DNA of 53,795 bases, taken from UHGV virus genome UHGV-0191815; one strand, given 5' to 3'. Made by a program: the position numbers and the translations under genes. Shown one piece after another: positions 31,338-31,922 of the stretch (position 1 is the stretch's first letter; every line of letters starts with the position of its first letter). The notes under the pieces were generated by a model. The model saw only the letters and a program-made list of their open reading frames with translations, made no database searches and was not told where the DNA came from. Source of the stretch: a virus.

Positions 31338-31922
31338 ATGGCTAAGGCTAAAGGCATTAAATTGCCTCAATTCAAAGTCCCGCTCTTTGAGCATACAACC
31401 GTTTTCTTTTGCCCGACCCGCGAGATGTTTTATGAATTTTGCGAAAAGGTAGGAATTCCAATTGAGCCTGATTTCGAACTGGCAGGAGGATTGACGCTTA
31501 CTTGCACTGGCGAGAAAGGCGGTAACTTCTACGTGATCGCAGTATTCGACAATGAGTTAGGAACACTGGTCCATGAATGCGCTCACACCACATTCCATGT
31601 TTTAAGTGATGTAGGCGTCGTGGCTACCACTGATCCATCTCATCCGGCGAATGAGACTTATGCTTACATGGTAGGCCGCATCTTTGACGCATTTTTCCCT
31701 ATCCTGGCAGAATCAAACGAAGCACAGGTGGCAGCTATGCAGGCCGCTGAAGTCGTGGAGAAGGCATTAGACCAGGAAGAAAAGGCGACTGATGCAGCAG
31801 AACAGGCAGTTGAACATGCAGAAGAGCAGAAAGAAGAGAAAAAGCCAGCTAAGAAAGGCAAACGTAAGCCTAAAGCAAAAGAGGCGCTTGTACCGCGTGT
31901 GATGAGCTTTAAACGGGGTTGA
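31338..31922 (+). CDS. Hypothetical protein with HExxH motif and lysine-rich C-terminal tail
   Basis: LVHECAHTTFH (HExxH, metallopeptidase-like) and C-terminal EEQKEEKKPAKKGKRKPKAKEA; RBS aggag. Confidence 0.5.
   Translation: MAKAKGIKLPQFKVPLFEHTTVFFCPTREMFYEFCEKVGIPIEPDFELAGGLTLTCTGEKGGNFYVIAVFDNELGTLVHECAHTTFHVLSDVGVVATTDPSHPANETYAYMVGRIFDAFFPILAESNEAQVAAMQAAEVVEKALDQEEKATDAAEQAVEHAEEQKEEKKPAKKGKRKPKAKEALVPRVMSFKRG

Follow-up and report, generated by a model that had tools for sequence, protein, structure and literature searches.

Gene 49 and its surroundings

The stretch of DNA analysed here (the window: 53,795 nucleotides (nt) of UHGV virus genome UHGV-0191815) belongs to a temperate E. 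coli phage of the mEp021/mEpimmI group, and its positions 30000-33300 are 90-94% identical to mEp044, mEp554, mEp010, mEp021 and MagusPhagus. Shortly after the lysis genes it carries a complete coding sequence of 194 amino acids (aa) plus stop codon (31338..31922, + strand), found in the list of open reading frames (ORFs) and in the sequence itself. This is the counterpart of mEp021 gene 49, which is annotated as a "hypothetical protein", and it is referred to here as gene 49. Its position, strand and length are confirmed as an earlier, sequence-only reading of the window had described them. The conclusion that we hold most firmly is that gene 49 very probably encodes a zincin-type metallopeptidase, with metal binding and proteolysis as its likely activities.

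Gene 49 is a real gene under strong purifying selection. Across 33 distinct alleles from IMG/VR contigs, the proportion of synonymous differences (pS) is 0.39 while that of nonsynonymous differences (pN) is 0.03, and the ratio of nonsynonymous to synonymous rates (dN/dS) amounts to 0.06 in residues 1-125 and to 0.08 in the final 30 codons. The Shine-Dalgarno sequence AGGAG (31324-31328, + strand) has the ATG 9 nt downstream. Both are invariant across 10 related phages, in which the block around the Shine-Dalgarno sequence, AGGAGATTATTCTGATGGCTAA, is invariant or nearly so. The encoded protein is 94-95% identical to its counterparts in mEp021 and mEp044. Judging from its sequence, it has neither a signal peptide nor a membrane segment and is therefore cytoplasmic.

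Upstream of gene 49 lie a lysozyme gene (30110-30601) and Rz with an embedded Rz1 (30589-31059), followed by a gap of 278 nt. Downstream, an array of mini-genes (about 31926-32700) contains five or more small hydrophobic ORFs, each roughly 22-60 aa in length, and comparable mini-genes are annotated in MagusPhagus. The array places about 830 nt of mini-genes between gene 49 and an Sf6-type small terminase gene (32755-33240), which is followed by the large terminase and portal genes. Thus, gene 49 does sit between the spanin genes and the mini-gene array, as the sequence-only reading had stated, whereas its description of the upstream interval as a non-coding gap does not do justice to a segment that is conserved like coding sequence and holds a long hairpin, probably a terminator. 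Among 41 unique relatives, the mean pairwise identity of the gap (31060-31337) is 0.906, compared with 0.886 for the N-terminal domain of gene 49 and 0.786 for the 3' part of Rz, and a conserved block within it spans 31098-31268. The hairpin and the T-rich stretch that follows it (31219..31269, + strand) match the TERM_6 annotation of mEp021; the loop varies across the 10 phages, whereas the stem of about 20 bp does not. A search of 30900-32800 against Rfam returned no match. The conserved gap could combine a terminator with a packaging (cos-type) site or a small RNA. That it represents a small gene was also considered, and single-nucleotide insertions and deletions (indels) among the relatives speak against coding. 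Three small ORFs can be drawn in the gap, namely 31045-31215 (- strand, 56 aa), 31072-31173 (+ strand, 33 aa) and 31243-31338 (+ strand, 31 aa), and their reality is doubtful; the last of them overlaps the start codon of gene 49 in a TGATG and is annotated in MagusPhagus.

The predicted catalytic domain and its charged extension

The HExxH sequence in gene 49, which had been read as a zinc-metallopeptidase signature, is a family-wide feature. It appears as HECAH at residues 79-83 (31572..31586, + strand), where H79 and H83 are predicted to bind the metal and E80 to act as general base. The next helix bears a NETYAY motif (31650..31667, + strand), including E106, the predicted third ligand, which is separated from H83 by 22 residues, and the nearly invariant Y110. 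Shuffling the gene 49 protein yields an HExxH by chance in 1.8% of cases, so the motif alone is weak evidence and it is the conservation that carries weight. When the gene 49 domain is aligned with 141 full-length sequences, each representing a 50%-identity cluster (142 sequences in all), H79 is retained in 141 sequences, E80 in 140 and H83 in 139. Other conserved columns are those of E106 and G51 (141 of 142 each), Y110 (135) and F70 (128), while the position equivalent to H87, after the motif, is F, D or Y in most members. In alignments of close relatives, H79, E80, H83 and E106 are all invariant. The sequence-only reading had proposed asking whether the HExxH is conserved among homologues; the motif turns out to be the most conserved feature of the family, and the claim is thus not refuted.

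Residues 1-125 (31338..31712, + strand) are assigned to a catalytic-type domain with a predicted minimal zincin-like fold, based on a match to PHROG 1365 and on AlphaFold2 models. In the model of the full-length protein the N-terminal domain is confident, with means of the predicted local distance difference test (pLDDT) mostly at 82-96 per 10-residue block. The model of the domain itself (residues 1-129, from 50 diverse sequences) has a pLDDT of 91.3 and a predicted template modelling score (pTM) of 0.86. It contains strands at residues 11-13, 21-25, 51-58 and 63-69 and helices at 28-38 and 44-48, followed by a helix at 74-91 that carries the HExxH and another at 103-128 that carries E106. 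The order of elements is strand, strand, helix, helix, strand, strand, HExxH helix and Glu helix. The zincin core has been described as a sheet with an N-terminal helix, followed by the HExxH helix and the Glu helix (Iyer et al., PMC5512222), and this order is present in the model, as judged by the order of secondary structure only. Matches to solved zincin structures are weak, and a Foldseek search of the model against the PDB gave no match at E <= 0.001.

Sequence searches define a large family. Residues 1-131 match positions 3-124 of the 127-position profile of PHROG 1365, a group of unknown function, at E 5e-31. A profile search of 1.84 billion cluster representatives recovers 989 clusters (50% identity) at E <= 1e-3, among them 222 at E <= 1e-10. 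Nearly all members are 115-140 aa in length, and most are stand-alone proteins of about 120 aa; among the best 150 of the 989 representatives, 129 measure 100-160 aa and just 13 are longer than 150 aa. In tblastn searches, the N-terminal 125 residues are 36-46% identical to proteins of P22-like phages, including ST64T orf-129, HK620 hkcC and others. The earlier statement that the protein cannot be placed in a known family agrees with the library searches. As a single sequence, gene 49 retrieves only noise from Pfam (Ferritin, Nop52), and neither the query nor the members score above threshold with any curated hidden Markov model (HMM) of Pfam or NCBIfam. No defence-system family of PADLOC is matched. 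A search of PDB sequences with the single query finds only a designed helical repeat, which matches the acidic helix described below, and a profile search of the same sequences with the 50-sequence alignment yields zero matches. Homologues from indexed searches have no Pfam domain or informative name, with one exception, a metagenomic homologue labelled by its source as "PolyVal Metallopeptidase superfamily domain". Our literature search, which covered hkcC, MPTase-PolyVal and anti-defence metalloproteases of phages, found no functional or biochemical study of any family member, and the mEpimmI paper does not discuss gene 49.

Below threshold, the commonest weak Pfam match is SprT-like (PF10263), seen in 32 of 127 members with a best E of 1e-4. 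Other weak Pfam matches are to putative metallopeptidase families (a few of the 127 members), and NCBIfam gives weak M3/pepF matches together with weak matches to TIGR04267 (aKG-HExxH peptide beta-hydroxylase) in 17 of the 127, with a best E of 0.009. The TIGR04267 matches raise the question of whether the family comprises peptidases at all, because an HExxH/Glu metal site may also serve hydroxylase, deformylase-like or nuclease chemistry or belong to a non-catalytic metal-binding adaptor. The weak fold matches to peptidases would be in keeping with this, as would the precedent of ArdC, whose protease activity on a substrate has never been demonstrated (PMC7213743) and for which no substrate is known. 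However, the TIGR04267 scores are far below threshold, and that model describes a named peptide-modifying enzyme rather than a stand-alone domain of 125 aa. In addition, the HExxH helix, the Glu helix about 22 residues on, the edge strand with G51 and the aromatic Y110 make up the classic gluzincin arrangement (PMC7213743), and the commonest weak sequence matches are to peptidase families. A non-peptidase function is thus quite improbable. At the superfamily level, we conclude from the model and the motif that the domain represents a predicted minimal zincin of gluzincin type (MEROPS clan MA(E) type) that stands outside every curated family.

The C-terminal third had been described as acidic and then strongly basic, and its composition bears this out. 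Residues 126-166 (31713..31835, + strand) are predicted to form an acidic, Ala/Glu-rich helical spacer with a net charge of -9, and residues 167-194 (31836..31919, + strand), EKKPAKKGKRKPKAKEALVPRVMSFKRG, form a basic tail with a net charge of +10 and an isoelectric point of 11.3 that is predicted to be disordered; the dN/dS of 0.08 given above shows that the tail is under selection. In the full-length model, an uninterrupted helix runs from residue 104 to 167, and pLDDT is below 50 for most of 171-194. The basic end, KKGKRKPKAKEALVPRVMSFKRG, hardly varies across 32 distinct proteins of the mEp lineage. The acidic helix, on the other hand, differs in length through indels, so that the protein occurs in versions of 180, 184, 190 and 194 aa. 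The indels fall in heptad-like repeats (EQALEQA/EKATDAA/EQAVEQA), in the region 31760-31830 and likewise in loci L014-L060, and one of them is 14 aa long, that is, two heptads. This suggests that the acidic helix is a spacer whose presence matters more than its length. An alternative tail of the mEp013 type (...KYIIAGQSRYAMG) was examined as a possible frameshift product, and it does not match the listed other-frame ORF 31792..31902.

A C-terminal extension of at least 25 aa is found in 10 of the 142 aligned sequences and is missing from the other 132; the tail is therefore an add-on that lies outside the core function. Tails that are likewise acidic and then basic do recur in distant clusters (P0132, P0164, P0220 and P0250) and at locus L107; they differ in sequence but again consist of an Ala/Glu-rich helix and, after it, Lys/Pro-rich segments. 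As single queries against IMG/VR, P0250 and P0164 gave no loci, whereas an alignment of four sequences did. In composition, the gene 49 tail resembles H1-like or AKP-type DNA-binding tails, and the term "histone-like" used by the sequence-only reading is fair as a description of composition. The tail most plausibly tethers the putative enzyme to nucleic acid.

Genomic positions of the family

Across several terminase families, members most often follow the lysis cassette and immediately precede the small terminase gene. In Klebsiella prophages, 3 nt separate the end of the homologue from a Terminase_2 gene, and Citrobacter has the same arrangement; in genomes of Citrobacter, Kluyvera and Pantoea species the homologue is followed by GP3_package or Terminase_2. 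Neighbours were counted in 37 non-redundant IMG/VR loci, taking two genes on either side. The downstream genes include Terminase_2 (11), GP3_package (3), Sf6_terminase (2), DUF2280 (5) and large terminase subunits (11), and on the upstream side Rz-like spanins and endolysins make up most of the neighbours. Even at about 30% identity, family members are found 2-4 genes ahead of terminase genes, and a scan of a genome collection with the 50-sequence alignment contributed 13 loci.

These positions bear on the proposal, made by the sequence-only reading from the location of gene 49 between the spanin genes and the mini-ORF array, that the protein is a protease or regulator for lysis timing or for the processing of the downstream small peptides. 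Spanins act in the envelope, whereas the gene 49 protein is cytoplasmic and carries no export signal, and many of its relatives are found away from lysis genes, in immI, the nin region, structural modules and prophage ends. As for peptide processing, the mini-ORFs encode short hydrophobic peptides without an evident leader to remove. Moreover, co-occurrence with the mini-gene array was looked at in other family contexts, and nearly all of them have no array: it is peculiar to the mEp lineage, and in most of the other phages examined the homologue abuts the small terminase gene or lies a few genes from it. Both forms of the proposal are thus extremely unlikely. Because relatives occur away from lysis genes and the array is confined to the mEp lineage, the neighbour that is kept is the packaging module, rather than the lysis genes or the mini-genes.

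One may therefore argue that gene 49 is a packaging accessory, which would work with the terminase, for instance by clearing away or processing a protein that sits on concatemeric DNA or at the site of packaging. This would account for a cistron just before the small terminase gene, a position that HNH endonucleases hold in HK97-like phages, and for the spacing of 3 nt in Klebsiella and Citrobacter, the GP3_package or Terminase_2 neighbours, the frequency of terminase genes downstream in the 37 loci and their persistence near very distant members. The gene is also present in all mEp-like genomes seen, and its DNA-binding-like tail fits an action on DNA. However, the only copy detected in P22 sits in immI, and other copies are located in the nin region, in the gap between Q and the holin gene, in tail modules and at prophage ends. 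In the window itself, the mini-genes intervene between gene 49 and the small terminase gene, and in other phages the lysis/terminase boundary also hosts Tad2-like and Acb2/Tad1 genes. Taken together, a packaging function is conceivable, although on the unlikely side.

The counter-defence genes lie directly upstream of homologues, as Tad2-like PF11195 in Klebsiella and Citrobacter and as the Acb2/Tad1 hairpin PF24729 in Klebsiella (L005 5665-5940, L007 5619-5900 and L164 3660-3935, all in Klebsiella/Citrobacter prophages). The lysis/terminase boundary is therefore a site for anti-defence cargo in these phages.

Other copies sit at sites of a different kind. In P22 and HK620, the copy is in the immI region, beside sieA, mnt and ant, whereas in ST64T it precedes the terminase gene; further sites are between Q and the holin gene, in the nin region and in tail modules. 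Several Salmonella phages have two matching places per record, in two identity classes. In P22-pbi, an intact family ORF of 121-125 aa and hkcC type, with HECAH and NETYCY, lies between sieA and orf59a/mnt (AF527608, about 13849-14226; locus L159 1789-2166, + strand); it is unannotated in AF527608 and overlaps the annotated sieA promoter. At loci L160-L163, a Salmonella homologue of 139 aa (gene 4001-4420) is the last gene of the prophage, after a tail-fibre invertase and a DUF1353 gene, and the host genes beside it differ by locus (cob, gut, hydrogenase/NADH-dehydrogenase-type and others). Such a position at the prophage end recalls the com/mom anti-restriction locus at the end of Mu.

The immI copies place the family beside the ant, mnt and arc anti-repressor circuit, and KilA-N genes, which are anti-repressor-like, lie near the homologue upstream in some loci and downstream in others. 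With one marginal Peptidase_M78 match, these neighbours could indicate a regulatory protease similar to ImmA/IrrE, which would act as an anti-repressor by cleaving its own or a resident prophage's repressor or another DNA-bound regulator. The M78 match, however, has an E of 0.099 in one of 10 members, and for 127 members the family is not among the matches listed (25 of 50 families). ImmA genes are normally beside immR, yet an adjacent gene for a cognate helix-turn-helix repressor was seen in none of the contexts examined, and the mEp gene is in the late region rather than the immunity region. We thus give an anti-repressor role little probability.

Homologues also occur in virion structural modules, next to an SU10 adaptor gene and close upstream of a polyvalent protein of 2318 aa that carries YkuD and LPD38 domains. 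Zincin peptidases are the commonest domain of injected polyvalent proteins (Iyer et al., PMC5512222). It is thus worth considering whether gene 49 encodes an early effector that is co-packaged and injected, a stand-alone counterpart of the metallopeptidase domains found in polyvalent proteins: made late, it would ride into the capsid on DNA by means of its tail and act at the start of the next infection. Lying in the late region next to the packaging genes, the gene may well be expressed late, the basic tail of its product might attach to DNA, and one homologue, as mentioned above, bears a "PolyVal Metallopeptidase" label. On the other side, most family members have no basic tail, and the Pfam MPTase-PolyVal model gives no match. 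Furthermore, gene 49 of mEp021 is annotated as "hypothetical protein", in contrast to a nearby product that was identified by mass spectrometry and is annotated as "virion structural protein". The mass spectrometry of mEp021 virions identified 16 proteins from gel bands (PMC11893012); because gel bands give low sensitivity, the argument that this offers against co-packaging is a weak one. Overall, an injected effector is unlikely.

Proposed role and comparison with known systems

For the biological role, we tentatively favour an accessory function: gene 49 may encode a minimal, cytoplasmic, gluzincin-like metallopeptidase that serves in conflict between phage and host or between phages, tethered to nucleic acid in the mEp lineage. 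The spread of the family over moron sites, its duplication in Salmonella phages, the copy in the immI region of P22 and the anti-defence neighbours suggest such a role. It is known that the immI region of P22 is dispensable, that P22 packaging needs only gp2, gp3 and procapsids and that the boundary between lysis and terminase genes is a hotspot for accessory genes. A conflict effector is favoured because packaging in P22 is defined without a protein of this kind and because the boundary is a hotspot for cargo; its chief rivals are the packaging accessory and the co-packaged effector.

In the proposed mechanism, the metal would be held by H79 and H83 of one helix and by E106 of the next, E80 would activate water, and the strand pair preceding the HExxH helix would dock the substrate chain. 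Proteins of PHROG 1365 would cut a host or rival-phage protein late in infection and would belong neither to the lysis nor to the head-assembly machinery. The putative catalytic domain of mEp-lineage members continues into a rigid acidic helix, variable in length, and a lysine-rich, H1-like tail, and the tethered enzyme may function in the manner of ArdC, Spartan and IrrE, zincin proteases that associate with DNA. The beneficiary might be either the infecting phage, through anti-defence, or the lysogen, through exclusion.

Several observations weigh against this proposal. No curated HMM in Pfam, NCBIfam or PADLOC reaches threshold, Foldseek finds nothing in the PDB at E <= 0.001, and biochemical data on any family member were not found in the literature. 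The gene is present in all seven GenBank phages of the group that were found and in all 47 mEp-like IMG/VR loci retrieved, although these loci were reached via the gene itself. Its tight juxtaposition with the small terminase gene is what one would expect of a fixed function, late or in packaging, rather than of a typical anti-defence gene with fast turnover. In addition, the protease site of ArdC, the nearest analogue that has been studied, is dispensable for the only phenotype tested (PMC7213743).

A broader scheme is that the family forms a new class of solo, phage-encoded effector proteases that are brought to DNA, in the mEp lineage by way of the helical spacer and the H1-like tail. Made just ahead of the packaging genes, the enzyme would clear DNA-bound proteins of host defence or of the nucleoid from phage DNA as it replicates, or destroy them there; alternatively, it would be packaged to do so upon the next entry. 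Although we regard this as unlikely, it would, if true, explain both the fixed position before the terminase genes and the company of Tad2/Acb2-type genes.

The accessory conflict role has wider implications. If it is true, about a thousand clusters of "hypothetical" temperate-phage proteins, including an unannotated P22 gene, are minimal zinc proteases; to our knowledge, proteolytic counter-defence or exclusion by phages is poorly documented. Because the family is small, soluble and single-domain and occurs in tractable phages such as P22, HK620 and mEp021, the question of its substrate is directly testable. Moreover, the position before the terminase genes provides a practical annotation marker for this slot in prophages. 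If gene 49 is merely a routine accessory enzyme, the gain is an improved annotation and little more.

Among known systems, the M3 oligopeptidases (oligopeptidase A, neurolysin and PepF) share the HExxH...E chemistry with the predicted site and give the weak pepF/M3 matches in NCBIfam. SprT, Spartan and Wss1 resemble the gene 49 protein in having a minimal HExxH domain and in the concept that DNA binding brings the protease to its substrate. However, all SprT-like matches are below the gathering threshold (the tabulated member scores 15.4 bits against a cut-off of 25.6), and a zinc-binding sub-domain is absent here. Spartan uses a third His as metal ligand (PMC7213743), whereas in the gene 49 family the equivalent position is unconserved and E106 is the candidate. 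ImmA, IrrE and CapP (Peptidase_M78) are regulatory proteases of mobile elements and defence systems with a gluzincin-type HExxH...E. They are much larger, with C-terminal sensor domains that the gene 49 protein does not have; there is no significant match to their HMM, and neither an adjacent cognate repressor gene nor adjacent genes of the cyclic-oligonucleotide-based antiphage signalling system (CBASS) were seen.

Another small HExxH protein of phages, PhageMetallopep (PF18894), is often found in the same slot before the small terminase gene, and six PF18894 proteins are among the downstream genes of the 37 IMG/VR loci (L107-L158 set). In hhalign, PF18894 matches the family profile at E 0.084 over the HExxH helix only, and no further relatedness was detected. 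At locus L096, a PF18894 gene (5376-6011) lies directly downstream of the homologue and before the next gene; since the two are separate adjacent genes there, PF18894 and the gene 49 family are not alternatives to each other.

The metallopeptidase domains of polyvalent proteins belong to large multi-domain proteins, whereas gene 49 encodes one domain plus a low-complexity tail. The MPTase-PolyVal HMM is unreported for the query at E <= 10 and absent from the complete list of 5 families matched by 10 members; nor does it appear among the matches listed (25 of 50 families) when 127 members are searched at E <= 1.

ArdC of plasmid R388 offers a comparison at the structural level, as its crystal structure shows a metal held by H201, H205 and E229 (PMC7213743). 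Like the predicted site of gene 49, it combines an HExxH helix with a Glu on the next helix, and 23 residues separate H205 from E229 (PMC7213743), compared with 22 between H83 and E106. Both proteins are small and encoded by mobile elements, with the protease domain of ArdC joined to a DNA-binding module and the putative one here to a basic tail. Aligned with the family profile in hhalign, residues 151-297 of R388 ArdC give an E of 4e-4 with a probability of only 35%, over 35 columns that cover only the strand pair and the HExxH helix and end before the Glu helix. There are also differences in architecture and timing. ArdC has a folded N-terminal ArdC-N domain, while the putative nucleic-acid-binding part of gene 49 is a disordered C-terminal basic tail, and ardC resides on a plasmid, with recipient cells requiring its product after conjugation (PMC7213743), while gene 49 is a late-region phage gene. 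In summary, zincin-like peptidases are already known from conflict proteins of phages and plasmids, and the new details contributed by gene 49 and its relatives are the add-on tail and the strict position.

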